From assembly GCA_042217545.1 (NCBI GenBank), contig JBDGSM010000017.1:4755-62487 (forward strand): a stretch of DNA of 57,733 bases. The letters are read 5' to 3'. Shown here piece after piece: positions 5,680-57,637 of this stretch. Numbering within the stretch: position 1 is the first letter of the stretch; each line of letters begins with the position of its first letter. Source of the stretch: Candidatus Nanohalobium sp. (GTDB lineage: Archaea > Nanohalarchaeota > Nanosalinia > Nanosalinales > Nanosalinaceae). Under the pieces are notes generated by a model. That model did not search any database, had not been told where the DNA came from, and was given only the letters and a program-made list of their open reading frames with translations. A program made the translations under genes and the position numbers.

Positions 5680-5685
5680 CTTTTT

Positions 5686-7345: not shown

Positions 7346-7348
7346 CTT

Positions 7349-8133: not shown

Positions 8134-9117
8134 TTACTCCTCGGCTAATCCTTCGTTGTAGATTTTCTTGACTACTGCTTCGATATCCGGTTCCTTGACA
8201 TGGAAATCGCTGATCTCGTAGTTGTTCAGGACTTCCTGCATGAGATCGCTTGCTGAAATTATCTCTCTGTCGAAGACTACTTCTACACCCTGTTCTGTAT
8301 CTATAATATCTTTTATGCCTTCAGTCTCCAGTTCTATAACTTCATCTGTCTCTAAAACAAGTCTTCTGGATGAGAAGCGGTCAACTAGATCATCTAACTG
8401 GCCGTCATAAATTTTCTTGCCTTCATCGAGAACGACGATTCTATCACATAAATCCTCTATATCGTCGATGTCGTGTGTGGTCAGCATGACCGTGATATTC
8501 TTTTCCTCGTTCATTTTCCGGATGAAGTCTCTGATCCTTTCCTTTACTGCTACGTCAAGGCCTATGGTCGGCTCATCTAAGTATACAATTTTTGGGTGAT
8601 GCAGGAACGCCGCTGCAAGTTCACACCGCATTTTCTGGCCCAGGCTCAGTTTTCTGACAGGTTGATCCCAGAAATCACTCAACTGAAGGACTTCATCAAA
8701 CTCCTCGATCCTTTGATCATAGTCTTCATCACTTACCTCATAAATTTCTTTGAGAAGTTTAAACGATTCTTTGACAGGTAAGTCCCACCATAACTGGGTT
8801 TTCTGGCCGAATACAACCCCTATGTTCATGGCGTTCTTCTTCCTGTGCCTGTGAGGGTCGAGGCCATTGACCTCTATTCTTCCCGAGGAAGGTTCTAGGA
8901 TCCCTGTCAGCATCTTTACTGTAGTGGATTTTCCTGCTCCGTTCGCACCGATATAGCCGATCATCTCGCCTTCATCTATCTCAAGGTTCAGGCCTTCCAC
9001 CGCGCGGATCTCCTCGTACTCACGGCTTATGAAGGATTTGAGGTATCCTCTGAGGCCTTCTCCCTGGTTGTAGATCCTGAAGGTCTTGTTCAGGTTTTCA
9101 GCTTCTATAAGACTCAT
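8134..9117 (-). CDS. ABC transporter ATP-binding protein (COG4586-like)
   Basis: Walker A GANGAGKST, ABC signature LSLGQKMR, Walker B IVYLDEPT and H-loop TTHD. It is the first gene of a five-gene minus-strand operon. Confidence 0.9.
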   Translation of the reverse strand: MSLIEAENLNKTFRIYNQGEGLRGYLKSFISREYEEIRAVEGLNLEIDEGEMIGYIGANGAGKSTTVKMLTGILEPSSGRIEVNGLDPHRHRKKNAMNIGVVFGQKTQLWWDLPVKESFKLLKEIYEVSDEDYDQRIEEFDEVLQLSDFWDQPVRKLSLGQKMRCELAAAFLHHPKIVYLDEPTIGLDVAVKERIRDFIRKMNEEKNITVMLTTHDIDDIEDLCDRIVVLDEGKKIYDGQLDDLVDRFSSRRLVLETDEVIELETEGIKDIIDTEQGVEVVFDREIISASDLMQEVLNNYEISDFHVKEPDIEAVVKKIYNEGLAEE

Positions 9118-9180
9118 GAATAGAACTTTCTAGAGAAGTTTTAAGAAAACAGACATTGCCGGGAAGTGACTCATCATTTT

Positions 9181-9465
9181 TCAGGAGACAGGAAGCTCCA
9201 TGGCTTCATCCAGTTCCTGTTCTACAGCCTCCTCAATATCATCATAACTTCCGAAAACGTAGTCGCCATCCCCGAATTTCAGGTGGTAGAGCTCGTCTCC
9301 TTCACTGTTTACGTAGAGTTCGTCCTCAAACCATTCGTCTTCTCCGTCACGGAAGCCTGTGAGGAAATCAACGACGAACTGGTAGCCTCCAGAGATCTCT
9401 GAGTAGTCTTCAAGATCGATATCTACTGTATCCTCGAAGTAGAAGCCGACTTCGATGTCCCTCAT
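9181..9465 (-). CDS. Small hyper-acidic hypothetical protein co-transcribed with XPB
   Basis: 94 aa and very D/E-rich. The ATG lies 3 nt after the XPB stop. I recognise no family. Confidence 0.5.
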   Translation of the reverse strand: MRDIEVGFYFEDTVDIDLEDYSEISGGYQFVVDFLTGFRDGEDEWFEDELYVNSEGDELYHLKFGDGDYVFGSYDDIEEAVEQELDEAMELPVS

Positions 9466-9468
9466 GGC

Positions 9469-26800: not shown

Positions 26801-27728
26801 CGGTCAGGTTCTCTGCTATGTCCTTAAACGTGCTGTTGCCGGTCATGCTGTAGGCAGACCAGTAACCCAGAGCCATAGAGGCCTGAGCCCTGCTGTTCTC
26901 ACACCTGAAAGTGTCATTCCATACATCACACGTGTTGGCAGATCCTCCAGTATAATTAACGGCGAGCTCTCTAACAGTTTCGTTGCCTGCCAGCCTGTAG
27001 GCCTCCCACATGGCGTATATCATCGTTCCCTGTCTCGTCCCGGCGTTAGCGTCCTCCTCTACCGATCCTCCGTACTGCTCACAGTTGAAGTCCTTATCAG
27101 GATCACACGTGGCTGTAGCACCTCCGTAAGATCCCAGAGTGAAGTTGTAGAATCTTTCCCTGTTCTCCTTGGTGCGGTTAAGACTGTAGCGAGCTGCAGA
27201 GGAGAGGATCATGTATGCCTGAAACTGTTCGTATTCACATGTGAAGTCGTTGGACTTAAACTGGCAGTAAGTACCTCCAGCACTCTCAGTATCTGAAGAG
27301 TTCATAAACTTCCGCTTCAAAGTTTTATTAAGCGATGAAATGCCTAAAGCACGGTAACTATCCGGAAACTTCTCCTGACCGGAGAGAAACCGGTAACGAT
27401 ATCTATCCCTGCTATCAAACAGTTTTCCAGGCACCTGAACCCTGTAACTCCCGTTAGAATAAGTCATAGAGAACTTACTTGTCCGCTCCATCGGCGGAGC
27501 GATTTCAAGACTGACGTTCTGATCCTGCTGGCCCTGTACCGAAAAGTTTACCGGTTCGCCGGTTGAAGCATAGAGACTCGAGTTCTGCATCTTAAGGCCT
27601 GCAGCAGTACAGGTGAGACCTATCACGAGAAACGCTGCTAGAGCCGCTTTACCTCCTGTTGTGATCTCGGATTCAGGCCTCATATTATATACATGATTTT
27701 TTTGTGAATCGCTCTTACTTATAATCAT
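23817..27728 (-). CDS. Large type I membrane surface protein with an internally duplicated beta-domain plus Cys-bracketed alpha-hairpin repeat region
   Basis: 1,303 aa. It has an N-terminal signal/anchor (KAALAAFLVIGLTCTAAG) and a C-terminal TM helix (VAVTVFVAAVFAGLIILLF, around nt 24170-24240) followed by a roughly 115-aa acidic cytoplasmic tail. Very many N-x-S/T sequons. Confidence 0.8.
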   Translation of the reverse strand: MIISKSDSQKNHVYNMRPESEITTGGKAALAAFLVIGLTCTAAGLKMQNSSLYASTGEPVNFSVQGQQDQNVSLEIAPPMERTSKFSMTYSNGSYRVQVPGKLFDSRDRYRYRFLSGQEKFPDSYRALGISSLNKTLKRKFMNSSDTESAGGTYCQFKSNDFTCEYEQFQAYMILSSAARYSLNRTKENRERFYNFTLGSYGGATATCDPDKDFNCEQYGGSVEEDANAGTRQGTMIYAMWEAYRLAGNETVRELAVNYTGGSANTCDVWNDTFRCENSRAQASMALGYWSAYSMTGNSTFKDIAENLTETNYTGPRTISAYLRGYLYTSNSSYPDAAENRTKKWLDRCTNCSTRRFADLKNALWRGYLYTGDYGYYRNAVNLTSSRVADICSWNQTACKYPNIQGMNSLNYWRAYRLQKDLRPGFYSPRIPDKTVLGRNMSVNVKMQGPLQEPRVQYRRKNASTWRECKLSFFENCTIPGKNLTRQAPYEYRYKSRNTIFPANGTFRFAPSLIKQNFIDEATAFSTNNPNTGCQPRSGDYSCENFALQASMIQGVASLLGFNFSQLNSFILKNLVSRPYVTSIAYTPLCTVKDGYMSCSEGANGADEVVEGSTKQGKMISSLFSAYRETGKNSYYQKALNYTRGSAQDCDVWNQTYDYSFRCNSSLGQASMIKGYLEAYTVTGNRTYREKALNLTEKALSMNGSAELGSALWKSSSMFNESFRNLSVTGNASNISSNYTGYCVGNCTPDQHTEVLSLFQSAYLNSNSDYSSPYRDSLLNTTAKGYCGPFKKDTACDSPLVQGNFMDLFWKASYTMPVKLKVNDTFSVSKSSLKVGDTFKATCSVGNELNNTVIKDLSMNISLSKGLSLESNQSYYSIGDLDYGNSSTESWDLKAVSAGSRNASCITSSNSAYRDALVRSIEVKAKKKKQNSTGGSGASSSGSFFNPPGGEPEKEPENITIEYNNTSSMEWNRSFLNSIGVNTSLRKFYGADSCVNATRKLYQGSSELVVDQACSADSLLVIDRNDQSISVQNARTSNNYTVKEERGTRNVSSITVDYSERGNASSYSEPLVLAVNRTEPPIRFREVAVFTVNDSRVHINATLNRKAPCMIRRDGELLKNFSTSWISYSEQLRYGNTSYRVKCGNRTVKRTFTLQRPEDRNNERSQVSGVAVTVFVAAVFAGLIILLFHFRHWIRDELEMKLFEHRFSRFQDAVDRGDTASAIKAFQSMSRDVSEQLIESDMDLMEGLLLYLLLDLVEEGKEDDVEFDVSDDLDELVNRYLDGSDGKAARLVEEKYIEVMEEK

Positions 27729-48800: not shown

Positions 48801-51800
48801 TCAGCTCGTCGGATCTGCTTAGCTTCTGGATCCAGAGCGATATTCCATTCAACATGACTGTTGAGGACGGACCTGACGGTTCAGGAGTATGCAGCTACAG
48901 GGAGAGCTACAACAGCACGGATCTCTGGGAACTCAAACAGTACAACCTCTCGGAGTACAGAGAGCAGTGTGGGGTCGGAGTAGCCCAGATCTCCTGGAAC
49001 TTCCACCACCGAGGGACTGGAAACGTCTCCACGCTGGTAGGCCTCGACCAGGTAAGCAAGCTCACACCCGCAAAGACCAACGTCAACGGGACCAGGAACC
49101 TGGAACTGCTGCCCGGAAAGACAGGTCAGTACGACTTCAAGCTGGGGATCAAACAGTCCGGATTCTACAACCTCTCACAGAGCACGGCTTTCAAGACGAT
49201 CAACATCAACACTGGAAGAGGAAGAAAGAGCGTCGCAGGCAAGAAAATCGGCGGAGAAACCCAGAGAAAGGAAATAGCGCCTACAGGACAGGTCAACACA
49301 ACAGACTTCTGGGTAGAACCCGACTACATCAACGCCACGGTAGCAGCAGAAACCTACGGAACGTTCGGAAAAGCAACGATCTACAACAACAAGACCAAAG
49401 ACCTGTTCCTCCAGCTCTACGAAGGAAACAGAGCAGACCTGCTCGACGTACAGGACAACGTCACCGTAAAGGCCAGCACCCCCAGAACACAGGAACTGCA
49501 CGATGTAGGCCTCGGCTTCAACAGTTCACAGCCCGGAACCTACAACGGAACAGTTACGTTCTTCGATCCAGCAACAAGGAACTACGACACAGTAAACGTA
49601 ACACTCAACGTCAGAAACATTATAATGAATATCGTGAACACCTCTGCGGAACACGGCAGGGACAACATCACTTCAGGAGACACGATAACGGCCTACGCCA
49701 ACGTCACATACAATAATACAAAACAGATCAGCGACGCAGGATGGAAGGCCTCAATACAGGGAGATAAATGCTCGAACGTTAACTCCAAATACATAAACAG
49801 CACAGGCCTCTGGAAGATCAGCTGCAGCGCCCCCGGCATCAAGAAGAATCCGGTAAACGTCAGCTACGAACTCACAGCGCTGAAGGACAACCTGGAGATA
49901 AAGGCGAGGAAAGGCCTGAAGTACAGAGATGTCACACCTCCTTTCGTGGTCTCGAAGACCGGGGACAACGTAAGACAGGGAGAAAACGCCACAGTCCGTC
50001 TTGAGGCAGTCGACAACGTTGGAATAGACAACGTCACCGGTACGGGAATCTATCTCGGGAACAGTACCAAGGTCGGAAACGTCTCTTTCAGCAAGGTCAA
50101 CGGCAGATACGTCGGAAACCTGACACATACAGGCAGTAAAGGAGACTACGATGTGAAGGCCAGACTTGAAGACGTGAACGGCCACACAAGAACGGTAAGA
50201 ATACCTGTATCCGTCTTCCCATTCGTCAACTTCACAGGATCCATGAAGGATATGAAAGCGGACTTCAGATTCCAGAGGCCTTCCTCGAACACCACCCTGA
50301 TAGATGCATCCACGGACGAGAGCTACAACCTGAAGGTCCAGAACAGGAGCTATGACGTCAACATAGATGTACAGCCTGACAGGCCTGAAAAAGTAGGTGA
50401 ACCAGTACACAACATAGAGTTCATAAACACGTCGGTTAAAGGGAACATGACAGATCCTGTGTCTGTGTCGCCTGTGGAGAACGGAAACCCGGTCAACTTC
50501 CAACACCCATCAGGAACGACGAACAACACCTTCACAGGAGTATCCATTAACAGCAGCTTCAACTTCAGCAAGGCAACCATCACCTTGAACTACTCGAACA
50601 ACGAGGACTTTGACGAAGCAGACGAGAACAACCTCCGTGTCTTCAAATGTGAGTACGGAGCCGCAGGAAAATGTAATACCTCGGACTGGAGGCAGCTGAA
50701 CACCACCATCAACATAACAGAGAACACTGTGAAAAGCTCCACCAACAGCACATCATCCTACATCGTTGAGAGGCTTTACACACCTAACAACAACCAGGGC
50801 GGAAACCAGGGACAGCAGAACAAAAACAAGAAGAAAAACAAGAACGGCGGCTTCCCAGGAGGCCTTACAGGAAACGGAAAGAACAGCAACCAGTCCAAAC
50901 AAGATAACAAGTCCGATATCGCCAAAGAACCGTTCATCCTGTCGCCACATATCTTCCAGCCTATCATGTTCCGTGGAGACGAGAGAACATTCCTCCTGAA
51001 GATCGAAAACAACAGGGAAAAGACGATCAACCTGAACATGAGTATTGAAGGCGAGCTCAGGAAACTGCTGGGGCCTAAACACAGCTCCATGAACATCTCA
51101 GCGAACTCCACCGCCGTAACAGAGCTGAGAGCCTCTATCCCTGAGGACGCAAAGATCAAGACATACACCGGGCAGATAATCGCCCAGTACGGAAACGTGA
51201 CAGTTAACAGCTCCCAGTCGATCCTGGTATCAAGGAAAGGTTCCGAAGGCTTCCATCTGAACGTTAAGGCCTTGACCAAGAACGTGGAGCCAGGTTCGAA
51301 CTTCAGCTTCCAGACAAAGATAAACAAGATCACCCTAGAGACTCCGCTCCAGGTAAATATGACGCATTACTTCAGGGAGAGTGATACGGACAAAGTTATA
51401 CTGAAACTGAACAATTCATTCAAAGTAAGCGACAGTAAAACCATTAAGAGAAAGATATCGACCAAAGATATTCCTTCAGGAAGTTACTATGTCCAGACCG
51501 TTGCAAAGGCCGGTAACACGACAGTTGTTGACTCAGCGACTGTTGTTATCAAGGAAAGCTTCTGGACGCCGTTGAAGACCCGGGCCTTGATACTGATAAT
51601 CGCAGTCATCCTGATCAGTGTCCTTGGATGGAAAGGTTACCAGTACTACTGGACGAAGAAGGAGGAAGAAGCACGTTACGTCTTCCCAGTAGATTACAAC
51701 AGACTACCAGATGAAATAGAGGACAATTACTGGGTCGGAAAGATCGCAGAGACAGAGAAAGATGCGTACATCGATCCAAGCGACCTCACAACCCACGCGA

Positions 51801-52750
51801 TCGTATCAGGATCGACAGGATCCGGTAAATCCGTCACCGCAAACGTGATCGCGGAAGAAGCACTTGAAAACGACGTACCGGTAATCGTGTTCGATCCTAC
51901 AGCGCAGTGGACAGGATTCGTAAAGGAACTCAAAGACGATGACCTCGAGGAACACTACGACAGATTTGAAATGGATCCTCAGGAGGATTCAAAGCCTTAC
52001 AGGGGAGTCATCAAGGAGGTAAGCTCGGCAGAACCGGATATCAACTTCGAGGACCTGCAGAACGAGGGAGAGATCACAGTATTCACACTCAACCAATTGA
52101 CAACTGAGCAGTTCGATGAAGCAGTCAGGAATATAATCGACCAGATATTCGACAAGGATTGGGAGGAGAGCCCAGACCTGGAGATGCTTGTAGTCTTTGA
52201 CGAAGTGCACAGACTGCTGGAGGAATACGGTGGAGAAGGAGGTTACGAAGCACTGGAGAGAGGAGCCAGAGAATTCAGAAAATGGGGAATAGGCCTCATG
52301 ATGTGCAGCCAAGTCACAGCAGACTTCAAACAAGCCATCAGCGGAAACATAATGACAGAAATACAAATGCAAACCAAATCCATGGAAGACATAAACAGTG
52401 TAGAGAAAAAATACGGCGAGGAGTTCGCCAAGAGAATCTCCTCGGAAGACGTGGGTACGGGAATGATACAGAACTCGAATTACAATGATGGAGAACCATG
52501 GTTCGTCGACTTCAGGCCTACCTACCACAACCCACACAAAATCCCAGACAGCGAAATGAAAAAATACCACAACCTCTCCGAGAAACTTGACAGTATCAGG
52601 AAAGAGCTGGACAGACGGGAGGAAGAAGGAAAGGACCTGAGAGACAAGGGGCTGGAACTCCAGCTGGCCGAAAACAAACTCAAGGAAGGCAGATTCAAAA
52701 TGGCAAACATGTACATAGACAGCCTCAAAGACGAGATGGATCTAGGATGA
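27833..52750 (+). CDS. Giant (8,305 aa) multi-domain surface adhesin-like protein ending in a TM helix and a cytoplasmic HerA/FtsK-type ATPase domain
   Basis: A single stop-free frame of 24,918 nt. The N-terminal signal peptide is KRAVAILLVILLIGTVAG/HS. Domain grammar is consistent along the whole length; see the domain features and findings. Confidence 0.85.
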   Translation: MGLKSSGKRAVAILLVILLIGTVAGHSLKILDTSNSFRTSQGKSNWTVSFNSSQTGKLKIEILQGSSKIDFDKLQYKLSGKWNDRSYNVSGNTLTTNWDGNHPEGRIAFSVQKYGRYRANISIGGREVSVGNPSKAEQQNFGFDVSDPTNSFNLCALTNNFWKCNPGPEEPGASGKVVNLNPEVQKKFKVPRNSKINHFSIKLSTVEGRPVLNLTGQGTLFTDIASNNLKEILTYQGQNINAYNSSGNKIWTYNANNTINNIKSGNEIIQGNKKEVLAATKNSTLMIDHQGNLTWADRGNEYYHIAAGELSSERKTYRNDDGKAEGLACIGCTNETVIQLPYNITTGNGTYYIKTALNKYKNSGDLKLKANGTTYDIDESRIEEKAVREFKNDSGKIEDMAEIGPGNITFQAFKPNLKAKDFYLKLPLARASSTTSDLKLEISGSKYSIPSGEVSSVVDPNFTYSTQSSAEALRNIGNGEAVYKTGFDPGSNTSIYVGGRFNSIGSNADIKVKLNGTSYTIDGSDISVNNIKEFKADDGKADGSSRLKASTNSTFNLHYSMPSDINSEKVYVKAGFTYSGDKSGNPFVKAGGSKYYFPKSQITETSDVTRYVNDNQRDNYSCIGCNSSNQRAPVFDLSALNVSTLKAENARISARMCSVGNRVDDLKLSGVGLGSNVYNVNVSKIHACSKGFQDVKIPVQPGDLAEDNFIFRCSNCNKTSYYRLASDNSTGGKYSQYLVGGAPTGISSDYMINVTTDTSLNYSWAEAAVPDTAVNQGDNVTIGCDGCSGSSSYRLMTDGSNSGNSYYFNNSLKKISSDYMTRIWTNTSLNYDTAYTRVNSSDIGPNTNISFSSTGNYNILVDKNNSGNSYYAGNPLNGEYKTRIEERPVNYSYTKIKINESELNADNATLSCQNCGSSYYIGLEPSSGLKISGTADFIGKKDFGADARVWTNTSLEYDTIRTPVNWKDLGKDVNVSYFCQGCSGKAFNVLIDNNSNSSSWKYSNGYRGLNGGLMSSVEFYGSNPGDEIVGSRLFPSAIVAMDSSGNQLWNYSTSEMTYSVNIGPVVPNSIGNEVVIATKKKIRILDSSGNVLKTYPSGSSKWFRATTLEDLNSDSKDEIVTGTDSGHVIALDQNLSVIWNQGVGSKVNGLTSGNLSKSPGPEILAGLQDSSLVLFNSSGQQIQSYSRPEAVTNLESGNVLTRPGQEIGVSTSQSRLFNFYNLPEDLYLSSGGNQLWNGSGLFTGTKTVSNSSIVQGMNNQLSGCGTKSCNLSFTLGSSTGGKVLLSDPELDFTYNLSDTYDYTTNVTKWAKTSGFSSDKKLMYKASRIKYTQTPAIPIRVNRIFLPGGVGTTKVVFNNNSFQNNAYSLDLPRSLRYWRFNFLGTRPTDYIWYNSSKKASPISVTKGNLTGSSPASRNVTVARATEKTDVTFRNVTVNIPVNTSEVVKDAFLKADWNGDGNYVNITPSETGCSSFRNVTGDTRTWKVCKTVNGNGKVDEFRIVQPEIGNSSSTHNETVYKLAGITNIAPTLNRLDVSPSSTYWGQDFNFTSDFSDAEGNSLNASLWLKKDSNWTKKASSQFTGSHNFTLTSDRNWTGAVDYKVSYYDVKNGSRLHDAVNSSTESFVVEAHDTNVSYRYGAGLELDRTGETGKLGGVVYDEDDGGKLNSYTSDLYCFLYMNGTAQSVTKINGTGYCSFSLADLKRDLGLYNWHIQTYSSKGYFKKSNSATKNLTLLGNFTVDTNFSKRTAFRGNGTVKYSYENIQDALGNSVSPTYNVTWGSANNLTVEGTQQLSGSSVSGTFTGITDTTPLGLTPMKLNPRQENFNNESFVKQVRVLGLITPNLYPSKNTVFPKNDLVNLTARLRDRQSNQITQASVDFNTPPGFCTATYQNRNVYKCQYNPDNSLAAGTYNWSIDATRQNYRLNDTKSQINVGTGIRADSNVTTGTVYRYSKASGSNTVYYNVTDIRDDTGQLDNVSWKALWEGSIIQSGKTNSTGFNFSYTVPENQNPGSKTAKLKLEKTGYRKYTDTSTVDVDGSINASLETRPNENLTATLRDMKDNPISGSSVTFHTPPGQCLKKYSIGNKYYCEYNADQGLSKGQYRWNISVNDPDYSYQQNKSANISIQSQISANLTLQSGPYYRANSSTSNPTNPSLQIANSNPSSVNYTISLGGKTVASGQVSGGSKYLTFNVPDTASLGTQTVTINLKKNGYEDLTKTFGREIRGTLTADLYQAEDVFRNNSVTRNNYNLTTNLKANITNALGQQVGGLSTSFNIPGGECITSYSNSYNYSCTYDPNILASVGNQTWSVTASAAGYEPVTSNQGSFYLKNVIRPDFLSSGEGYRRDRTKSLKVQALNPSDNSVDASYTSSYYIGPDYLGGNSGTGTVSFSWSPSCTRSVGGYTIDANITSNDPRYEVYQGQDSGNISVRADLNLNISSPLNSSVSGKNYQQGSNVNLATDLATQCGDPVNMSGTDIIWKASDRDTTKIISSGKTASWNIPESFTGETNITAYGDNYYYVGGSDTNKILIERVLNINTTGGFTDKLRTFGGSYDYPFSAEIITGDGKKAYNSSLNENWNKFNISFYVDGNKVKELRTDSQGSVNTTINLGSQYNPGTHTLKAYLENTTAINTTILNDKYTKDIKLTDQASVDMSRPKSGQKSYGQEVNLISSINTATGNENALNIDYNWIFKDNDTQRYISSSKVSSWIIPSYAYGPGNISVVAQNDYLTTATNTTDVTVNRKTNIEKYDPYKYVEPDTVNKLNATIDIPGLQNKSGYKVTFWTGSYSNQHTVKTGPNGTATYKWNTSGLSKGAYNTGVFIKDAPPSYFKAVDPKSVNRTLVIPDKLNISAYYRDNNEENANGNNFPNLPDKVVYRNPGPWKNPDKIFLAANVTTPFANSGDKYDVENATVDFWINGTSDNGQQITEKIGQDNVNLTAFQQGLNDNKDQWWDEYTAHTSWNPRGNLPVGAYNLKINATHPVPGFNPDPIRRPLEIRGVLNITITDPPAWEDTYQMDNLTFSAQVEDMNGNDIPVSSLDQAIWTLQEDGCANSGDAGASGWSAGTFDWSSAIAHGPKTGSLSSWIVMGNTGYYNIGGGELVWLNAEKQYFNVTRNEYRRGFTDCSAVHHQEDGPKGQINSQFEGDREDRVGIQHDMRARTESVVSEPSQTEVATNNRDMLNITARYYEFNTTQGLPNDFEGTYHATCKECTQSKNKNLSQSAYSYRDQDVAQFRFNFSNEKYRKNYTFTIWATSSDSDFGAVDPYATDSREYRVYKSLGSGTGSVNINGKCENGETAVSAPPDCGFDNLPEHYWLNQTADPGINASDKNPASNDTQYNEFRNTSSPAYENNKAWYAAHSHYSSEYAGGCDFDGKEDDKYEEPDVCPDYFSSDNKPQIKSTQVNPPYVKSGNQANVTAKVRDIDGDLQSVDLIDKSTNSKVTSMSTTSGSCTTYCTFTTTITVSSVKTYYVKAQDSANNTATGNNVDARTDDNPVNITNVTVLGQDPRKKNANLDVDMNVSNVDIPGGATPDSIKEANIEGKTPYVLKHGSNWAVLEQTITADPNDETVNVNVTEYPGYQDSATATYNVDNTIPNVTNEQVTPSLVKNGDKVNFTATITDNALDREYIKRTDNGNKVCTNSSFTNTGGDTYKCSINAPYKTGSFTYRFYAMDKADNTNDSETVTLSVDSHPPEITGLSSDKYIRPNQTVTISANVNDVEGHLDSAMLVTMNQFYNDSMNVVCDDQEFQGSCQVSPNKSTDYMIYANDTLGNENLNFSQDYVEVKVDEFKPNVELQNQETNFSGTVNIKARVNDTPPEVANGGFEQGNTGQWKFTQSSTNITNGTGYCTDDNGDGTSYCAFFDGSVYPKTTAQNNITGQKADRIAGKSVEFSGSLWGERNNFGLETDSSKASYKEYGGEDDARFHIKAWDGSNNLIKDKKGVWASHYTSNRTSGEMTNVSNGFKVPSSAKTISVQLDGGDLQGSAANAYDSFFDSIKLGPSNLDTSSVKYAFSNSSGNYTSSGAGFGSLPHDTGNNFSTSVDTTGLEDGYYMLTVKASDAVNNQAIYRKEVKVDNEPPEIDFRENISRKAKITVSDGSNQKKITLRPGIEKYPVSFSGTSGSATLDILMNSSTPLETGLINSLVLKASDGSVIRNISTESQWDQGSYSGLSTDGRTSSALGLGSQNGSSGDSLVGYWRFNRKVSGKGGTIPDSSGNSNKATLLNGSDITGDGIYSTNSVDLNGINQSVRADKSADLNSSSLTFSTWFKMDRNLTCSSNNNWRSFAHKGSSTSGSNRGWDIVLEEGGATAFDVNGTRWWPDSFHDEKVGYPLDEWHHYTYTYKASTGRMAFYKDGKLIDYYYKEPGPIRPAASQLKIGGGTDTGCPSGSGYVPGSYDEVQVYDQALAKSQIQDLYSKTSNAYKGTYTDSFSTSKAVKSIEVNTDNLWNSRVQNTETFNISIFDELLNDDPSTYKYRINGGSYQSIQNLGNSSFSATKDTTGLSNGWNSIEAKASDTEGNTGTKRFRFFVDNQNPSISAISANTSITNGDTVGLSADISDSSLNASSVNFTLINATDQAFEKDPSESCDYTSSKLSCSSAWTPSGLKDGSYNFKVHASDLMGHKASNQDPGESFYLDTKKPNITSSGINDSFVQSSQNLLVWALANDDHNVSTVKAEGYSLSEQPAGNWSSVIPVTDGVVNLTVKDVAGNKKSYGNLNYTIDDKRPQISGLTSNASADFAQGDQVVRFELNASDSHMRSVGLKNRSSGKYVGMVNGSKQTWYLKIRPKQLGLVEQEYNLTARAIDKADNLRKDYYNITIDNSPPRIKKVVLNDTVIRSNTEIAVNATVNDRAPDWVNANGVNLSQNGNLWKGTINVNLSTENPVNVTAEDLAGNFNSNASVGYTIDNTAPTISAFVSNASSGVTRSDAELRFNVSTSDANMRNVTVQGEGLTQGSPWFLKATPGSLGCATGVADQNCTLTAKSTDKADNTQSRDLNITVDDVRPDVGNFTSNVSIIRPGSAVYFTADIDDANVRNVTVRNSTDTVCEMTRVSGTNYSCSTQLYNSSDYFVDALDLAGNVNDTQSVNIETDTTPPRFLSFGSNATYNASRSGANLNFTAVAEDLRLEKVSIGGIKASNLSSTYSLVRTPGELGCPTTGESVCGISFYAEDVPGNSKNRTYNLTVDNIDPDINLVKIDDQIIQSNSTVKATVNVSSETDTDLEYVKAEGQGLTWNGSLWTGNIKVDNDGYVNASTKDKAGNTDLNESVQYIIDDQAPNAYSFNSNTSQDVSRSDKVLNFNLNANDNYQLRDVKIWNKTSGKKLDMTNTGGTRYAVNTTPASLGCPEGVNRKSCDLTVTATDRADNKANTSYTLTTDDIAPDIQDINFNDTDTVVKPNKTLKTNLTLVDDKQSTISELKVENQSISQKSKNSTGGLKSIWEGSITIDNDGFLNITARDQAGNTNTDNSTEYIVDDTSPTIQNLNTNSSNGVIRSDQTLNITVNASDRYNLSSVTVNGLNMHKTGKWIWNRADTAGDLGCTTDGNCELQAKAFDQAGWNSSTRKYLKIDNTNPNVGTLTALNASDGSPDAALGKWNLDWRLFNTTDATNLTVKLYAINGTTGKSTGGNTTVLKQFNQTSYRTVKRPVYFNATNGTYTLVANVTDEAGNRVNTTYRLAITAQPPEIPDAWASNKRPEEDREKATIKANITDTNEIDTTKMTILNTGKTFTNLTLLQPATGNRTGGIYGVDYTPPDNGYYNISVTGIDGTDERRTEEFDRVFKAIGKTSGNLSMNAQRTVFDNITQNYTGRTPVDVNFTNTGLAGSYQTSIQPALVQAGVTTNSTGKNCGRVDNGSSCQATILINVSPQASPGTKRVAEFADWVNPDGTNASISDTLGLTVKKNPVLKLRKDKISKDVWWNQKVNVTNLSAYSFGNYKLKNVTATVSQSYLNNSATNNLLGSYYRFFGEGNNVSKDETGNSSFQVQIPDKGRYIFELKSKASNNQNCGGNQCSDTKVVDLDVFRKTDVNFLTSPGEKYRGSNYLQARVVNGEGNNVNGYTVGFYDNGSLIQNVSMSGGLADFNWNTEQKQLGFHNLTARIWDDESNHFRTIDSTESVGVTLNDSLQISRDINDRDMYWYDNQTDHNVTLNYTVRNRNGYSVENATVSLISNSSDKFKHVGSCRTDPNGKCNITWNTNVSTPVNATIRSKAYKNRYYDNSTTNDSIVEIKGGFSVEIGVPDTGLNWKNDTDLIVGRNQYLKALITDENGTSVTPNNINWTINTSSGYKQIGNSKNLTWTVSGVSTGPHELNVSTETQQGVKTSDTVNVGVYEPVDISVNSVSPGNTERKNSTVQINANVTNTRTGNPLDGYRCKLSDQSEGEFINSTQSLSSGLCTMTWNTEYTDFVGTHNLRIDIPENRTGTWYLPVKNSAETRSVTLTEKLNLSVQKPRGIIHRYTSQDLQAEARNAYNKTSATIEWRHGGSNVQPNGTGKQGDWNTSGLSLGAYRLNTTASKPQYTSDLVRNNLTVYGYSKVNFNESGLYTSGDRINLSFRAEDVNTTTGIADYPVQVYRKYENGSYKAWRNGTTGSSGWYNTTWNTTNDSIGDYKLKADISDNSTLYYNNTNSNVTRSFFVGGTLNLNITGLSKETVYRDQLTEPSETVIEANVTNGGIPVSNAAKVEFDFSGKKIGECLTNSTATTGLCNITWNPGSDRKVGVQNITAQASADNYFNSSKARRQIEIRTGIRPYFRDKKETASFNFSSKQGLNITPQVIETFTGDGVGNYNFNLGYGDRKDDIEVETSKKAWSNDSATLADMNSSLAISGTSTVNVSAEDREIITLNVSKATENFSLGFRRNSSWKQAFKGSFNGTRNLEIPDGKIKALNISTSGNITLESLKLVDTDLANRKELMRRRILGQFGNSRMNFENSKPHNDYSRCMNSGSCVLNGTYVGTEPGFNDSVEGSRTPGVFSGKALLANITNMSANDSVSIRRPYLEYYPGEKNFSSSDLLSFWIQSDIPFNMTVEDGPDGSGVCSYRESYNSTDLWELKQYNLSEYREQCGVGVAQISWNFHHRGTGNVSTLVGLDQVSKLTPAKTNVNGTRNLELLPGKTGQYDFKLGIKQSGFYNLSQSTAFKTININTGRGRKSVAGKKIGGETQRKEIAPTGQVNTTDFWVEPDYINATVAAETYGTFGKATIYNNKTKDLFLQLYEGNRADLLDVQDNVTVKASTPRTQELHDVGLGFNSSQPGTYNGTVTFFDPATRNYDTVNVTLNVRNIIMNIVNTSAEHGRDNITSGDTITAYANVTYNNTKQISDAGWKASIQGDKCSNVNSKYINSTGLWKISCSAPGIKKNPVNVSYELTALKDNLEIKARKGLKYRDVTPPFVVSKTGDNVRQGENATVRLEAVDNVGIDNVTGTGIYLGNSTKVGNVSFSKVNGRYVGNLTHTGSKGDYDVKARLEDVNGHTRTVRIPVSVFPFVNFTGSMKDMKADFRFQRPSSNTTLIDASTDESYNLKVQNRSYDVNIDVQPDRPEKVGEPVHNIEFINTSVKGNMTDPVSVSPVENGNPVNFQHPSGTTNNTFTGVSINSSFNFSKATITLNYSNNEDFDEADENNLRVFKCEYGAAGKCNTSDWRQLNTTINITENTVKSSTNSTSSYIVERLYTPNNNQGGNQGQQNKNKKKNKNGGFPGGLTGNGKNSNQSKQDNKSDIAKEPFILSPHIFQPIMFRGDERTFLLKIENNREKTINLNMSIEGELRKLLGPKHSSMNISANSTAVTELRASIPEDAKIKTYTGQIIAQYGNVTVNSSQSILVSRKGSEGFHLNVKALTKNVEPGSNFSFQTKINKITLETPLQVNMTHYFRESDTDKVILKLNNSFKVSDSKTIKRKISTKDIPSGSYYVQTVAKAGNTTVVDSATVVIKESFWTPLKTRALILIIAVILISVLGWKGYQYYWTKKEEEARYVFPVDYNRLPDEIEDNYWVGKIAETEKDAYIDPSDLTTHAIVSGSTGSGKSVTANVIAEEALENDVPVIVFDPTAQWTGFVKELKDDDLEEHYDRFEMDPQEDSKPYRGVIKEVSSAEPDINFEDLQNEGEITVFTLNQLTTEQFDEAVRNIIDQIFDKDWEESPDLEMLVVFDEVHRLLEEYGGEGGYEALERGAREFRKWGIGLMMCSQVTADFKQAISGNIMTEIQMQTKSMEDINSVEKKYGEEFAKRISSEDVGTGMIQNSNYNDGEPWFVDFRPTYHNPHKIPDSEMKKYHNLSEKLDSIRKELDRREEEGKDLRDKGLELQLAENKLKEGRFKMANMYIDSLKDEMDLG
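30890..31500 (+). other. Beta-propeller-like repeat region (FG-GAP/PQQ-like blades) inside the giant protein
   Basis: Repeated blade-like units: GDEIVGS..VAMDSSGNQLWNY, GNEVVIAT..ILDSSGNVLKTY, KDEIVTGTDSGHVIALDQNLSVIWN and GPEILAG..LVLFNSSGQQIQ. Confidence 0.55.
39262..39825 (+). other. CBM4_9-like carbohydrate-binding (jelly-roll) domain inside the giant protein
   Basis: It starts with the hallmark ANGGFEQGNTGQW, ends with ...FFDSIKLGP, and is about 185 aa long. Confidence 0.5.
40386..41060 (+). other. LamG / concanavalin-A-like lectin domain inside the giant protein
   Basis: LVGYWRFN...IPDSSGNSNKATLLNG...LTFSTWFK...WHHYTYTY...MAFYKDGKL...YDEVQVYDQAL is the Laminin_G_3 pattern. Confidence 0.6.
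41716..44503 (+). repeat. Tandem array of about 85-105-aa Ig-like domains in an alternating A/B di-domain super-repeat (about 5 copies)
   Basis: Domain boundaries carry [VIT]D[ND]xxPx[IV] motifs at nt 41716, 41971, 42265, 42524, 42806, 43075, 43358, 43618, 43927, 44219 and 44503. Confidence 0.7.
51584..51640 (+). other. Single C-terminal transmembrane helix of the giant protein
   Basis: ALILIIAVILISVLGW is followed by the positively charged KGYQYYWTKKEEEAR, consistent with positive-inside topology and a cytoplasmic downstream domain. Confidence 0.7.
51670..52747 (+). other. HerA/FtsK-superfamily (DUF87-like) P-loop ATPase domain of the giant protein
   Basis: Walker A GSTGSGKS (nt 51809-51832), Walker B LVVFDEVH (around 52188-52211) and the REFRKWGIGLMMCSQ segment typical of HerA-like ATPases. 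Confidence 0.7.
52232..52722 (+). repeat. 491-bp perfect direct repeat, copy 1 (3' end of the giant gene)
   Basis: Identical base for base to 54106-54596 (offset 1,874 nt). A further 17 identical nt follow a single C/T mismatch at 52723/54597. Confidence 0.9.
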
Positions 52751-54624
52751 AGAAAAAAATAGCACTTATAGGTCTCGCACTGTTGCTTACAGGAACAGCA
52801 GCAGGTATGTCCGTTCACAGCGAGATACCAGCCCTGAGCACGATCTTCAAGCAGAAACAGGAGATATACACCGTGAGGATAACAAACACCAAGAACTTCT
52901 CGCAGACCTACAGCTTAAGGCCTGAGAAAGACCTGGAGAAGCTAGTAAACGTGAGAAGAAAGATCTCTATCGGCGCAGGCGAGTCAAAGGAAGTCAAGAT
53001 TGAAATCAACGGGAAAGGCCTTAGCGACGGACTCTACGCAGGCAATATACTTGTGAAGAGCAATACAGGCGAGGAGAAAGGAATACCTGTCGGTTTCAGA
53101 GTTGTAAGGAAGAAGAACTCCGATCTCCGGCTTGACGTGCAGACAACATCTGGCTCTATGAGGCCTAAAGGAAGCATCAATGTCCTGACCGTACTCTCAT
53201 CGAACGAGGGGAAGAACGTGAGCGGTACAATCACTTACGGCATAAGAGACGCCACTTCCGGAGTCAGGATCTACAAGACGACCCGGAACGTCTCCATAAC
53301 CAGGTTCGGATCCTTCACGCATGAGATAGACCCTTTAACAGAGGTCTCTCTGGGCGAGTACTACATACAGGCCAGGCTGGACACGGGGAACAGGACAGTA
53401 ACTGCGACCGATACCTTCCGGTCAACTAACCCGTTCTGGTCAGCTACAAGGATAAAGATCGCACTCTTCCTCGCAGTCGGAGCGATCATCATAGGCGGAG
53501 GATTCTACACACAGAGATGGTACCAGCAGCACAAGGACGAGGACGCACGGTACGTCTTCCCGGTTGACTACGAGAAGCTACCGGACGAGGGAGAAGACCA
53601 GTACTGGGTCGGAAAAGTGGCAGAGACGGAGAAAGACGCATTCATCAATCCGAAAGACCTGACAACACACGCCATAGTCGCAGGAAGCACAGGATCAGGC
53701 AAATCCGTCACCGCAAACGTCGTAACAGAGGAAGCACTTGAAAACGACGTGCCAGTAGTAGTATTCGATCCTACAGCACAGTGGACAGGATTCGTAAAAG
53801 AACTCAAGGACGACAACGTCGAGGAACACTACGACAGATTCGATCTCAACCCTGAAGACGACACAAAACCCTACCCGGGCATAATCAAAGAAGTGACCAC
53901 AGGAGATCCGGATATCGATTTCCAGCAGCTCAAACAGCCCGGAGAAATAACCGTCTTCACCCTCAATGAACTTACAACAGAACAGTTCGACGACGCAGTT
54001 AGAAGCATCATCGACCAGATATTCGAGATCGAATGGGAGGAAAGCTCAACACTGGAAATGCTGGTCATATTCGACGAAGTCCACCGCCTACTCGAAAAAT
54101 ACGGGGGAGAAGGAGGTTACGAAGCACTGGAGAGAGGAGCCAGAGAATTCAGAAAATGGGGAATAGGCCTCATGATGTGCAGCCAAGTCACAGCAGACTT
54201 CAAACAAGCCATCAGCGGAAACATAATGACAGAAATACAAATGCAAACCAAATCCATGGAAGACATAAACAGTGTAGAGAAAAAATACGGCGAGGAGTTC
54301 GCCAAGAGAATCTCCTCGGAAGACGTGGGTACGGGAATGATACAGAACTCGAATTACAATGATGGAGAACCATGGTTCGTCGACTTCAGGCCTACCTACC
54401 ACAACCCACACAAAATCCCAGACAGCGAAATGAAAAAATACCACAACCTCTCCGAGAAACTTGACAGTATCAGGAAAGAGCTGGACAGACGGGAGGAAGA
54501 AGGAAAGGACCTGAGAGACAAGGGGCTGGAACTCCAGCTGGCCGAAAACAAACTCAAGGAAGGCAGATTCAAAATGGCAAACATGTACATAGACAGTCTC
54601 AAAGACGAGATGGACATGTCTTAA
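52747..54624 (+). CDS. Membrane-anchored HerA/FtsK-type ATPase with two Ig/CARDB-like ectodomains; paralogue of the giant protein's C-terminal module
   Basis: Signal peptide MKKKIALIGLALLLTGTAAG, TM helix IALFLAVGAIIIGGGFY (around 53452-53505), Walker A GSTGSGKS (53683-53706) and Walker B LVIFDEVH. ATGA overlap with the giant ORF stop. Confidence 0.85.
   Translation: MKKKIALIGLALLLTGTAAGMSVHSEIPALSTIFKQKQEIYTVRITNTKNFSQTYSLRPEKDLEKLVNVRRKISIGAGESKEVKIEINGKGLSDGLYAGNILVKSNTGEEKGIPVGFRVVRKKNSDLRLDVQTTSGSMRPKGSINVLTVLSSNEGKNVSGTITYGIRDATSGVRIYKTTRNVSITRFGSFTHEIDPLTEVSLGEYYIQARLDTGNRTVTATDTFRSTNPFWSATRIKIALFLAVGAIIIGGGFYTQRWYQQHKDEDARYVFPVDYEKLPDEGEDQYWVGKVAETEKDAFINPKDLTTHAIVAGSTGSGKSVTANVVTEEALENDVPVVVFDPTAQWTGFVKELKDDNVEEHYDRFDLNPEDDTKPYPGIIKEVTTGDPDIDFQQLKQPGEITVFTLNELTTEQFDDAVRSIIDQIFEIEWEESSTLEMLVIFDEVHRLLEKYGGEGGYEALERGAREFRKWGIGLMMCSQVTADFKQAISGNIMTEIQMQTKSMEDINSVEKKYGEEFAKRISSEDVGTGMIQNSNYNDGEPWFVDFRPTYHNPHKIPDSEMKKYHNLSEKLDSIRKELDRREEEGKDLRDKGLELQLAENKLKEGRFKMANMYIDSLKDEMDMS
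54106..54596 (+). repeat. 491-bp perfect direct repeat, copy 2 (3' end of the 625-aa ATPase gene)
   Basis: Identical to 52232-52722. The upstream parts of the two ATPase domains are only about 80% identical by eye. Confidence 0.9.
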
Positions 54625-54659: not shown

Positions 54660-56930
54660 ATGGGAGTCCTGGACAAGATCAAAGGCAGCAGCACCGACAA
54701 GGACCAAGTAAAGGAAGAAGTGAATGAACAGGTCAAAGAACTCAAGGAACAGGCCTCCAACCAGAAAAAAGAAGAAAACTCACAGGAAGAAATACAGGAG
54801 AAGGACGAGACAACCGAAGAACGTCCAGAACCTGAAGAAATAGAGGAAAAAGAAGAGCAGGAAAGAGAGGAGGAAGAAGCGGAAGAGACCTCACAGGAAG
54901 AAGATTCTGAACAGGTTGAAGAAGAAAGCAGTTCCGAAGATTCTGAGGCCTCAGAAAAAGATGATGAAGCAGACGATGAGCCGGAGACTGTCGGAGCTAT
55001 CGCAAGAGAGGACCAGGACATAGACTACGATCCCGAGGAGCATCAGGACCAGGAAGAGGAAGAAGACGAGATAGAGCTCCAGGACCTTATGCAGAAGACC
55101 GAGAAGCTGGAAGGCCGGTTCGAATCATTCGAGAGCTTCCAGGATCAGGTAAACCAGCGTCTCAGCAATCTTTCCGAGAAGATCGGCGAAGTCCGCTCCA
55201 TGGTCCTGGAACAGGAGAAAGAAGTTGACGACATCAAACAGGGCTACAAGAAGATAGAAGACATCTACGAGGACATGGAGCCCGAAAAGATCAATAAACG
55301 ATTTGAAAAGATCAAGGGCAACGTCGACAAGATCCAAGGCCAATCAGAACAGAACAAAGAACTTCTGGACAACTTACAGAACACCGTAGATGACATAGAA
55401 GACGCACTTGACCAGGTAGACGACTTCGACAACCTGGCGGAGATGCATGAATCACTGCAGAAGAAAGTGGACAAGGTAGAGCAACTCAAACGTGAAGTAA
55501 ACGAGAAAGAATCCAAAGTCGAGTCAATGTTCGGCGAACTGGAGGAAAGACTGCCAGAACTCGACTCAGTAAAACAGAAGACCGAACAGCACGAAGAAAT
55601 GCTACAGAACCAGGTAAAAGACATAGACCAGGTCAAACTCGATTTAGACGACAAACTGGACGAAGAAAGCATCACAGACAAGCTCGAAGAAGTCCTGGAC
55701 GACGAAGAAAAGGATATAGAAGGCCTTGTAACCAGGAAAGACCTCGAAGAGGAAATGCAGGAAGAAAGAGAAAGCCTAAAAGACCTGGAAACAGACGTGC
55801 AAGGCCTGAAGGAGGATATAAAATCCCGACAGGAAGACATAGATGCCGTAGGCGAAAACGAGGAGAAGATACAGGACCTCAAAGACAGGATTCGGGGCCT
55901 GGAGGACACGGCCGAGGAGGAGGACGAAAAAATACAGGAGGAAACCGAAAAGCTCCGCGGAAGACTTGAAGAACTGGAAGGTCATGTAAAGGACAGGGAG
56001 AACATCAAATCAATAGTAAAGACCTACCAGGAGGCAAAGAACAGCAAACTCCAGAGCAGATTTGAAGACATCGAGGAAAGACTTGAGGAAGCGGAGAGCA
56101 ATGATGAAGAGGAAGAACTCCAGGAAGAAGTTCAGGACCTGGAAGAAGAAGTTGAAGGCCTTAAGGACAACCTCAAGACACTTAGAGAGAGCTCCGGCGA
56201 CAAAGAAAAGATCGAAGAGCTTGAAGAACAGTTCAGAGGCCTCGAAGAAGAGCTGGACGAGGAAATGGATGATCTCAAGCAGAACCTGGATAGCGGCGAG
56301 GAGCTCTCGGAACTCGAGGAAAGAATCGGAGAACTCGAGAAACGTGAGAGAGGTCTCGAAGAGAAGATAGACGAAAGAGTTGATGAAAAAGTCTCCGGCG
56401 TACGTGAGAAAGCTGAAAAAGCGGAGAAGAACGGCGACAAGATCGAGATCCTGCGCAAGGACTTCAAAGAAGCAAAGGAGAAGAGAAGCAGCGATGTCGA
56501 AGACCTTGAGGAAGAGGTATCAAACGTACAGGAACGTCTGAACTCCAAGGAAGACCAGGAAGATTTCAACAAGCTTGAGAACCGTGTCGAAGAAGTTGAA
56601 GGCCTGAAAGACGACATTGATAAGATCGAGGAGAACCGTGAACGCCTAGAAAGCCTTAAGAAAGGTGTTAAAGAGCTTCAGGAAGACGAGAACTCGGGCC
56701 AGGAGGACCTGAGGGAGAAGGCCTCAGACCTGGATAAGAAGGTTAGAGAACTTGAGGAGAAAGTCGACGGCGGAAGCAGTCTCGAGGAACGTGTTGAAGA
56801 AATCGAGAAGGAGCTTAAGAACGGCAGGGACCTTGAACAGGAGGTTCAGGAGCTCTCTGAACTTGTGCTAAAACTGGCAAGACAGCAGCAAGGATTCGGC
56901 GATGAAGGAGTACAAGAACGTAGAATGTAG
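54660..56930 (+). CDS. Hyper-acidic coiled-coil protein (756 aa)
   Basis: A roughly 150-aa E/D/S-rich disordered N-terminus is followed by about 600 aa of heptad-like E/K/L/D repeats. It starts 35 nt after the ATPase gene on the same strand. Confidence 0.75.
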   Translation: MGVLDKIKGSSTDKDQVKEEVNEQVKELKEQASNQKKEENSQEEIQEKDETTEERPEPEEIEEKEEQEREEEEAEETSQEEDSEQVEEESSSEDSEASEKDDEADDEPETVGAIAREDQDIDYDPEEHQDQEEEEDEIELQDLMQKTEKLEGRFESFESFQDQVNQRLSNLSEKIGEVRSMVLEQEKEVDDIKQGYKKIEDIYEDMEPEKINKRFEKIKGNVDKIQGQSEQNKELLDNLQNTVDDIEDALDQVDDFDNLAEMHESLQKKVDKVEQLKREVNEKESKVESMFGELEERLPELDSVKQKTEQHEEMLQNQVKDIDQVKLDLDDKLDEESITDKLEEVLDDEEKDIEGLVTRKDLEEEMQEERESLKDLETDVQGLKEDIKSRQEDIDAVGENEEKIQDLKDRIRGLEDTAEEEDEKIQEETEKLRGRLEELEGHVKDRENIKSIVKTYQEAKNSKLQSRFEDIEERLEEAESNDEEEELQEEVQDLEEEVEGLKDNLKTLRESSGDKEKIEELEEQFRGLEEELDEEMDDLKQNLDSGEELSELEERIGELEKRERGLEEKIDERVDEKVSGVREKAEKAEKNGDKIEILRKDFKEAKEKRSSDVEDLEEEVSNVQERLNSKEDQEDFNKLENRVEEVEGLKDDIDKIEENRERLESLKKGVKELQEDENSGQEDLREKASDLDKKVRELEEKVDGGSSLEERVEEIEKELKNGRDLEQEVQELSELVLKLARQQQGFGDEGVQERRM

Positions 56931-57231
56931 ACGCTGCGGCTACCAGTGGTATTCTGAACAGTTTGAAGAGGAAGGTGATGTTCCCAGTCAGTGTCCACGG
57001 TGTTATCAGGAGGCGGTACGTGAGATACCGGAGCCACCTACCAGATTTGATATCTGGAGGGAGGAAACAGCGAAGAAGTGGAACGAGCTGCCCGGAAAGA
57101 TCAAGAAGACAAAGCATAGGGCCGTGGTCTGGAAGGAAAACAACAAACTCCTGATCTCGCTGATCAATACAGGCCTTATCATCACTTTACTGGTTGCCGG
57201 CTTAATTTACCTGCTTTTCGTCCGGGGGTAG
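56902..57231 (+). CDS. Zn-ribbon protein with C-terminal transmembrane anchor
   Basis: CRRCG...CPRC four-Cys ribbon and a C-terminal helix LLISLINTGLIITLLVAGLIYLLF. It overlaps the upstream gene by 29 nt. The start is uncertain. Confidence 0.5.
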   Translation: MKEYKNVECRRCGYQWYSEQFEEEGDVPSQCPRCYQEAVREIPEPPTRFDIWREETAKKWNELPGKIKKTKHRAVVWKENNKLLISLINTGLIITLLVAGLIYLLFVRG

Positions 57232-57233
57232 GA

Positions 57234-57258
57234 GAAAGACTTTAATCCACGCAGATAG
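57234..57258 (+). repeat. 25-nt direct repeat copy 1 (GAAAGACTTTAATCCACGCAGATAG), promoter-like
   Basis: Perfect match to 57600-57624. It contains a TTTAAT box. Confidence 0.8.
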
Positions 57259-57336
57259 TATATCTTCTATCTATTGCTCTGTTACAAATCCAAAGCCTAG
57301 AACACATTTTTAAGCTCCAGACATATAAGTTCGAAT

Positions 57337-57576
57337 ATGAAATCTTTAGTAGAGCTTTTTGTAACCTCCATCGGTATATTCATCGTCGCTGTAGGGATAG
57401 CAGTGTTGGATTCTAGTCTTATTCCCGGGTTATCAGCTTACCGAACTCCTCTGGCTATTCTTATTATCTTACTTGGAGGATCGATTGGAATTTACGGCCT
57501 CGGACTCAACTCCGATGAATCAAAGAAAGATAGGCTCCTTGACTTTTTGGAAGCCCTTCTACAAGGAGCGCCTTGA
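57337..57576 (+). CDS. Small two-helix membrane protein
   Basis: 79-aa hydrophobic ORF flanked by a 25-nt direct repeat. Confidence 0.45.
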   Translation: MKSLVELFVTSIGIFIVAVGIAVLDSSLIPGLSAYRTPLAILIILLGGSIGIYGLGLNSDESKKDRLLDFLEALLQGAP

Positions 57577-57599: not shown

Positions 57600-57624
57600 G
57601 AAAGACTTTAATCCACGCAGATAG
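57600..57624 (+). promoter_or_regulatory. 25-nt direct repeat copy 2; probable enolase promoter (TTTAAT box about 28 nt upstream of the ATG)
   Basis: Perfect match to 57234-57258. The spacing to the ATG at 57638 fits a leaderless archaeal transcript. Confidence 0.45.
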
Positions 57625-57637
57625 AAAGTTTTCTACA

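Follow-up and report, generated by a model that had tools for sequence, protein, structure and literature searches.

What could lead two adjacent genes of very different length to carry the same 491 nucleotides (nt), base for base, at their 3' ends? The question is raised by a locus of Candidatus Nanohalobium sp. (assembly GCA_042217545.1) within a 57,733-nt stretch of contig JBDGSM010000017.1 (positions 4,755 to 62,487), referred to here as the window; positions are given in window numbering throughout. The first gene, G (27833 to 52750, + strand), is the giant surface-protein gene "SPEARE", recognized from its open reading frame (ORF), Pfam matches and synteny. It encodes 8,305 amino acids (aa), comprising a huge ectodomain, a transmembrane (TM) helix, a cytoplasmic HerA-like ATPase and a coiled-coil tail. 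The second gene, S (52747 to 54624, + strand), is a small tandem paralogue of 625 aa, for which the ORF, Pfam, NCBIfam, AlphaFold2 and Foldseek predict a signal/TM helix, two Ig-like beta-sandwich domains, a TM helix, a HerA-like ATPase and a three-helix coiled coil. The part of G that is paralogous to S by tblastn and BLASTP alignment is its cytoplasmic ATPase and coiled-coil module (51641 to 52750, + strand). S is collinear with the last ~600 residues of G, with faint similarity in the ectodomain by BLASTP, and at the nucleotide level no G/S similarity was visible upstream of ~51640. Interlocus gene conversion from G to S probably best explains the shared tract, and we put the probability of this reading at roughly 75%.

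Direct base comparison of 52232 to 52722 in G with 54106 to 54596 in S (both + strand) gave 491 identities in 491 positions at an offset of 1,874 nt. A lone mismatch follows (C at 52723, T at 54597), and then 17 more identical nucleotides (52724 to 52740 and 54598 to 54614). These 3' homology edges lie at 52723 to 52740 in G and 54597 to 54614 in S (+ strand), and past them the last codons diverge, G ending in DLG and S in DMS before the stop. On the other side, the 5' halves of the two ATPases, at 51660 to 52231 in G (Walker A at residue 7993, Walker B at residue 8120) and 53534 to 54105 in S (Walker A at residue 313, Walker B at residue 440), both on the + strand, were identical at 434 of 572 positions (75.9%), with no gaps and no change of register. 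The proteins are 77% identical in this first half of the ATPase and 100% identical in the tract. The boundary was abrupt, with 21 to 24 matches per 30-nt bin before it and 30 of 30 after it. In both copies the tract begins in codon phase 0, at residue 8134 of G and residue 454 of S, seven codons past the Walker B motif DEVH; the context reads EVHRLLE[E/K]YG before the boundary and GEGGYEALERGAREF after it. The tract encodes the C-terminal half of the ATPase and the coiled-coil tail (S residues 454 to 617).

A preliminary description of this DNA had reported a perfect 491-bp tract at the 3' ends of both ATPase genes, the 17 identical positions beyond one C/T mismatch, and the same coding content, and direct comparison bore all of these out. 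The pairwise comparison that it proposed showed a sharp jump at the tract start, the divergence not being uniform across the domain. Its estimate of about 80% identity over the ~570 nt upstream, made by eye, is slightly above the measured 75.9%. The 57.7-kb window held no other long repeat and no Ns. The repeat search lists the G/S family only as a 300-nt reference at 81%, and the tract was established by the direct comparison. Orthologues are 81 to 85% identical at the nucleotide level in the tract stretch; the chance of a full match would be 0.85^491, or ~1e-35.

The G and S ATPase modules were taken from ten genomes and codon-aligned, giving 549 polymorphic sites (genome labels in the comparisons are win, SG9, ERZ, DAL, J88, J90, Nanohalovita, Nanohalococcus and B1). 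In a neighbour-joining tree of the 5' part, the window G (win_G) grouped with the G genes of SG9, DAL and J88, and the window S (win_S) grouped with their S genes. Since these genomes group by paralogue type in this part, the duplication predates these species. In the tract region the grouping switched, and the window G and S fell together within the G-type group. The p-distance of the tract was 0.163 to G-type and 0.200 to S-type orthologues (bootstrap of 0.999 for G-type being closer), and the G-type signal was strongest in the first half of the tract. Because the tract copies group with the giant-gene orthologues, the copy in G is taken as the donor and the copy in S as the acceptor; S appears to have been overwritten by G, possibly over older exchanges. 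In a permutation test on the window pair, the run of 242 successive matching polymorphic sites was never reached in 5,000 shuffles (p<=0.0002).

The nature of the identity and the architecture around it were also informative. Orthologues differ from the window tract by 42 to 82 synonymous and 16 to 37 non-synonymous codon differences of 163. Synonymous sites vary among orthologues, and therefore protein-level selection cannot explain the nucleotide identity. The spacing between G and S is 1,874 bp, compared with 1,868 to 1,886 bp in relatives, and the last codons and downstream flank of S stay S-specific. Since both copies, the spacing and the S-specific 3' end are kept, the tract is a patch (two exchanges) and not the outcome of a single unequal crossover. 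We also noted that the 5' ATPase half of the window S (53534 to 54105) was at a distance of 0.255 to G-type and 0.274 to S-type orthologues (bootstrap of 0.90) and carries 15 of 42 G-diagnostic states, which hints at older G-to-S exchanges in the window lineage.

The event would have been a recent, non-reciprocal homologous recombination that carried ~0.5 kb from the 3' end of G onto the matching part of S, 1,874 bp downstream. In S, neither the 5' half of the ATPase nor the last 9 codons nor the flank downstream would have been altered. The organism's own homologous-recombination machinery would have acted in vivo. On this model the window tract is the newest and longest of many exchanges between G and S, whose ATPase modules would evolve in concert across Nanohaloarchaeota. 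Conversion would be commonest at the motif with the highest conservation (REFRKWGIGLMMCSQVTADFKQAISGNIMTEIQ), since strand exchange is helped there by long stretches of identity. Such a pattern would fit a feedback in which DNA identity extends furthest where the protein is most conserved, and strand exchange is in turn most efficient there. Homogenization may be tolerated, or even favoured, since both proteins would use one type of HerA-like, hexamer-forming motor.

Runs of shared sites also were significant by permutation in ERZ, SG9, DAL, J88, J90, Nanohalovita and Nanohalococcus. In the first five of these, they fell in a hotspot at alignment columns ~645 to 767, encoding REFRKWGIGLMMCSQVTADFKQAISGNIMTEIQMQTKS; the Nanohalovita run was at columns 827 to 914, and that of Nanohalococcus was at columns 185 to 314, around Walker A. 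Nowhere in the family are invariant residues packed more densely than in the block that this hotspot covers. We considered whether exact runs there are mere extreme conservation and rejected this: the test uses polymorphic sites only, and the hotspot variants differ between genomes yet are common to the G and S of one genome. Mean G-S identity within a genome exceeded G-S identity across genomes in almost every 45-nt window of the alignment, and G-G and S-S orthologue identities were barely above those across paralogues. In the trees, the G and S of B1, Nanohalovita, Nanohalococcus and J90 sit with their partner from the same genome instead of grouping by paralogue type, despite conserved synteny. 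Nanohalococcus and Nanohalovita are represented by closed circular genomes from cultures, obtained with 2x300 MiSeq reads, and the exact G=S runs in these two are 133, 152, 92 and 74 nt. These runs are shorter than the reads and therefore are not assembly products. Taken together, the smaller genome-specific identity patches at the G/S pair in most of the nanohaloarchaeal genomes compared indicate recurrent concerted evolution. The proposal of recent gene conversion or concerted evolution in the preliminary description is thus upheld by the incongruence between tract and flank trees, by the permutation test and by the genome-specific variants shared in relatives; the comparison with orthologous loci that it had called for gave significant runs there, placed differently in Nanohalovita and Nanohalococcus.

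Two further pairs were observed. In B1 (contig L006, Nanohaloarchaea archaeon B1-Br10_U2g21; 4895 to 6004 and 6766 to 7875), the G and S modules are 98% (5') and 95% (3') identical in amino acid sequence, with 80 synonymous codon differences in the 5' half and 60 in the 3' half and no clustered tract (permutation p=0.71). This suggests an old homogenization, followed by very strong purifying selection keeping the proteins alike. In the non-halophilic DPANN metagenome-assembled genome (MAG) CSMAG_1486 (contig L016), a tandem ATPase pair (4207 to 5298 and 8848 to 9942) is 77% identical overall and has a 104-nt exact run in the corresponding central region, so that concerted evolution of such ATPase pairs may be general in DPANN.

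Several observations weigh against conversion from G to S in the window. In its second half the tract does not point cleanly to one donor (bootstrap of 0.77), and the diagnostic sites of the tract as a whole are 9 G-like, 4 S-like and 1 neither. The two identical copies in the window are known from the assembled contig alone; no second assembly of the window species was found, a scan of metagenome contigs having given only two loci, of a species at 72% aa identity. Finally, the pattern in another metagenomic scaffold, L084 (JGI 3300021446), is what an assembly error would produce. These last points bear on the alternative that G and S were collapsed by a short-read assembler between exact runs common to both, with one path then threaded twice, so that the true 3' half of S would be ~85% identical to G. 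Relatives carry 80- to 150-nt shared exact runs in this region, which are possible junctions in an assembly graph. We consider this artefact unlikely, although the caution about mis-assembly in the preliminary description is justified.

L084 has the only other long tract found, 434 nt in which the S copy carries G sequence. Compared with L003, a contig of ENA ERZ27300266, it has 0 differences in ~9 kb except for 57 substitutions, all in the S tract. Positions 357 to 456 of L084 are a gap of 100 Ns, on either side of which the same 55 nt occur (an overlap corresponding to L003 6457 to 6511); this suggests a short-read assembly with k=55. In L003 just two shared runs reach 55 nt or more, one of 83 nt and one of 56 nt, and the L084 tract extends exactly from the first to the second; an error in a k=55 de Bruijn graph would give a matching pattern. 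The tract in L084 is therefore ambiguous, and we downgraded it from a clean before-and-after example of conversion on account of the N gap with its 55-nt overlap and the bounding runs of at least 55 nt. A difference in the first 500 nt of L084 was considered as a rearrangement and rejected, as it is the scaffold gap; the same gap makes the giant gene look truncated to 1,048 aa in gene calls. A second scaffold, L091 (ENA ERZ23491536), begins exactly on a 55-nt G=S run (1 to 55 and 1878 to 1932). Such runs therefore disturb assemblies, this one having broken at the paralogue hotspot. The true shared run at the start of the L091 contig may be longer than 55 nt.

Against a merged assembly in the window itself, the contig crosses both copies with correct spacing, intact frames and an S-specific end, and without Ns. 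The 3' edge of the tract is one mismatch lying 18 nt from the end of homology, and in SG9-type relatives the terminal shared run ahead of that position would be only ~38 nt, probably too short for the usual final k. Moreover, the closed genomes, in which the runs do not reach read length, independently show that concerted evolution of G and S is real. Gene conversion in vivo therefore is retained as the preferred reading. At precisely the G/S locus, short-read assemblies of MAGs will break or become distorted because of identical tracts of 0.1 to 0.5 kb.

A different explanation is that selection for an identical protein surface, through which G and S bind each other or a shared partner, produced the tract. 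The preliminary description had gone as far as to state that both proteins must present such a surface. The ATPase fold does match hexameric HerA, the tract includes the most conserved motifs of the family, the start codon of S overlaps the stop codon of G in most loci, a sign of translational coupling (see below), and the B1 proteins are alike at 98% and 95% of residues despite their 80 and 60 synonymous codon differences, so that some selection for similarity, like co-assembly, is plausible. Protein-level selection, however, cannot yield identity at all synonymous sites, which is a signature of DNA copying. In the tract region, G and S differ at 24 to 28 of 163 residues in SG9, ERZ, DAL, J88, J90 and Nanohalovita, at 18 in Nanohalococcus and at 8 in B1. 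Identity is therefore not required, as the differences in the first six genomes make clear, and the earlier statement is not supported. We give this explanation very little chance; at most, selection on the protein lets conversions be accepted or helps them to become fixed.

Unequal crossover classically acts on tandem direct repeats, and a single such event, or a fresh partial duplication, might be invoked in place of a conversion patch. One crossover between G and S would leave either one fused gene, with a loss of 1,874 bp, or three ATPase modules. The window has exactly two modules at the ancestral spacing of 1,868 to 1,886 bp, with last codons and flank specific to S, and on this retained architecture we rejected a crossover as highly improbable. 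That a hidden element (a structured RNA, an antisense gene or a regulatory site) constrains the nucleotides of the tract has practically no probability and is effectively refuted, since the closest-relative orthologues differ by 15 to 20% (B1 by ~30%) in this stretch, mostly at synonymous sites, the window gave no Rfam match, and the mechanical antisense ORFs present in both copies follow trivially from the duplication.

The family to which the two motors belong was examined next to the conversion itself. Both ATPase modules contain Walker A (GSTGSGKS) and Walker B (DEVH) motifs, match Pfam DUF87 (E-values of 4e-11 and 1e-13) and carry HerA_C signatures. The matches of G to Pfam are only DUF87, HerA_C and ResIII, all at its extreme C terminus. 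An AlphaFold2 model of the S monomer had a mean confidence score (pLDDT) of 89 and predicts, in order, an N-terminal helix, two beta-sandwich domains (residues 21 to 226), a long TM helix (233 to 266), the ATPase core (286 to 547) and a three-helix coiled coil (559 to 621). In the model, the N-terminal ~250 aa (52747 to 53500) form, at high confidence, two extracellular beta-sandwich domains of the Ig-like type. With Foldseek, the best match of the S core was hexameric HerA (4d2i; E-value of 1e-12), SIR2-HerA also was matched, and the ectodomain of S matched Ig-like adhesins. A PDB sequence profile search agrees with the HerA assignment, and the NCBIfam matches to CedD, HerA, TraC, VirB4 and TraD were partial and far below cut-offs. 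The fold evidence favours a HerA-like ATPase over a specifically VirB4-like one. Reva et al. 2023 (PMC10266531) re-annotated the C terminus of the giant as a VirB4/TraG-like ATPase with a coiled coil, noted the second ATPase gene downstream, and reported the VirB4 N-terminal domain PF03135 (CagE_TrbE_VirB) in the small Nanohalococcus paralogue. PF03135 was not found in the window S at E<=0.01, nor in the precomputed Pfam lists of S orthologues. G and S thus resemble the hexameric translocases of the HerA/FtsK superfamily (Sulfolobus HerA, 4d2i, and the SIR2-HerA defence complexes) in Pfam, PDB profile, Foldseek and Walker motifs. Unlike HerA, they are predicted to be membrane anchored, with an Ig-like or giant ectodomain and a C-terminal three-helix coiled coil. 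Among the genes examined, in flanks that were scanned only in part, there was no NurA, SIR2 or other known HerA partner.

If evolution of the G motor and of S is concerted, and the two have a hotspot in common and are coupled in translation, then they probably are parts of one machine. In 12 of 13 loci the ATG of S and the stop codon of G share bases (ATGA), and in the remaining one, Nanohalovita, the stop directly abuts the ATG; as read from the sequence, G and S are translationally coupled through this overlap. Co-assembly of G and S in one ring is plausible, being compatible with a HerA-type motor, the coupling and the protein identity in B1. A more elaborate version would have the G motor and S form a mixed HerA-like hexameric ring at the base of an attachment or secretion apparatus, with S supplying subunits that six 900-kDa ectodomains could not sterically provide, and with recurrent conversion (whose direction appears to be G to S in the one or two long tracts, and which would have a universal core hotspot) keeping the ring components compatible across Nanohaloarchaeota and other DPANN. 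We regard this as speculative and doubtful as a whole.

Gene conversion and concerted evolution of prokaryotic paralogues are known from tufA/tufB of Salmonella and E. coli and from the thermosome/chaperonin subunit paralogues of archaea. Such pairs exchange patches by homologous recombination and show mosaic identity with sharp boundaries, clustering by genome and identity at synonymous sites. The G/S pair shares the mosaic identity, the sharp boundary, the genome-wise clustering and the synonymous identity. It differs from those pairs in being a 25-kb giant and a 1.9-kb gene in direct tandem, and in that only the shared C-terminal motor module is homogenized, the ectodomains of G and S being diverged almost beyond recognition. 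The direction is from giant to small in the window and, if its tract is real, also in L084.

SPEARE is the giant surface protein of nanohaloarchaea (Hamm et al. 2019, PMC6642349), and its domain content was described and roles in host attachment or secretion were proposed in that study and by Reva et al. 2023 (PMC10266531). As in published SPEARE loci, the window encodes a protein of >8,000 aa in which an ectodomain is joined through a TM helix to a cytoplasmic P-loop ATPase and a coiled coil; a second ATPase gene comes next, and the locus is syntenic with SG9 SPEARE 1, SVXNc_0300/0299 and BNXNv_0298/0297. What identifies a SPEARE locus, a protein of >5,000 aa with a C-terminal TM helix, P-loop ATPase and coiled coil, and a second ATPase gene directly downstream, is all present here. 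The phrase "gene conversion" does not occur in the text of Reva et al. 2023 (PMC10266531). Among papers pairing "gene conversion" with Nanohaloarchaeota, of which Hamm et al. 2019 is not one, none is on the G/S pair by title or abstract. The process proposed here would be classical interlocus gene conversion at a published locus, for which we found no report of conversion between G and S.

Genes for SPEARE giants are the hallmark of host interaction in nanohaloarchaea. How the giants work is disputed, an invasion tool, a restriction enzyme and a secretion "straw" having been put forward. Phylogenies of these ATPases are not readable as orthologue trees, and the 491-bp direct repeat exposes S to possible deletion. 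Gene conversion between tandem paralogues is textbook material, so the general significance is modest; the finding is mainly for DPANN specialists and serves as a warning for assembly and phylogeny.

G is syntenic with the 8,553-aa SPEARE 1 of SG9 and with the 8,880- and 9,409-aa giants of Nanohalovita and Nanohalococcus. S orthologues of ~625 aa occur throughout Nanohaloarchaeota (SG9, Nanohalobium, Nanohalovita and Nanohalococcus), with remoter relatives spread across DPANN. The gene that comes directly after S in every related locus encodes an acidic coiled-coil protein, 756 aa in the window (54660 to 56930, + strand; ORF and synteny), a member of the cluster outside the repeat. The fourth cluster gene (56902 to 57231, + strand; ORF, Pfam and synteny) encodes a 109-aa zinc-ribbon protein with a C-terminal hydrophobic helix. 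The order giant, small ATPase, acidic coiled-coil and zinc-ribbon protein (~108 aa) is common to SG9, Nanohalovita and Nanohalococcus and is kept in all loci with contigs spanning the four genes; the L088 contig stops inside the third. The flanks of the cluster are ordinary chromosomal genes (eIF2-alpha, primase, XPB-like helicase, PAC2 and enolase). Upstream of G, and divergent from it, lies a 1,303-aa ORF (23817 to 27728, - strand) with no Pfam match at E<=1e-4.

The 756-aa protein is very acidic, has weak similarity to SMC/Rad50 coiled coils without ATPase heads, and is encoded by a gene that holds degenerate 41-nt internal repeats; its length across genomes ranges from 512 to 832 aa. The coiled-coil tails of G and S could have this protein as a partner. 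Beyond the cluster we noted a 36-nt direct repeat (57234 to 57269 and 57600 to 57635) that is 89% identical, with the first 25 nt (GAAAGACTTTAATCCACGCAGATAG) identical. Its copies sit just upstream of two successive genes, a 79-aa membrane-protein ORF (57337 to 57576) and enolase, which starts at 57638. Because the zinc-ribbon gene directly precedes enolase in SG9, the 79-aa gene looks like an insertion that brought a duplicated promoter-like segment with it.

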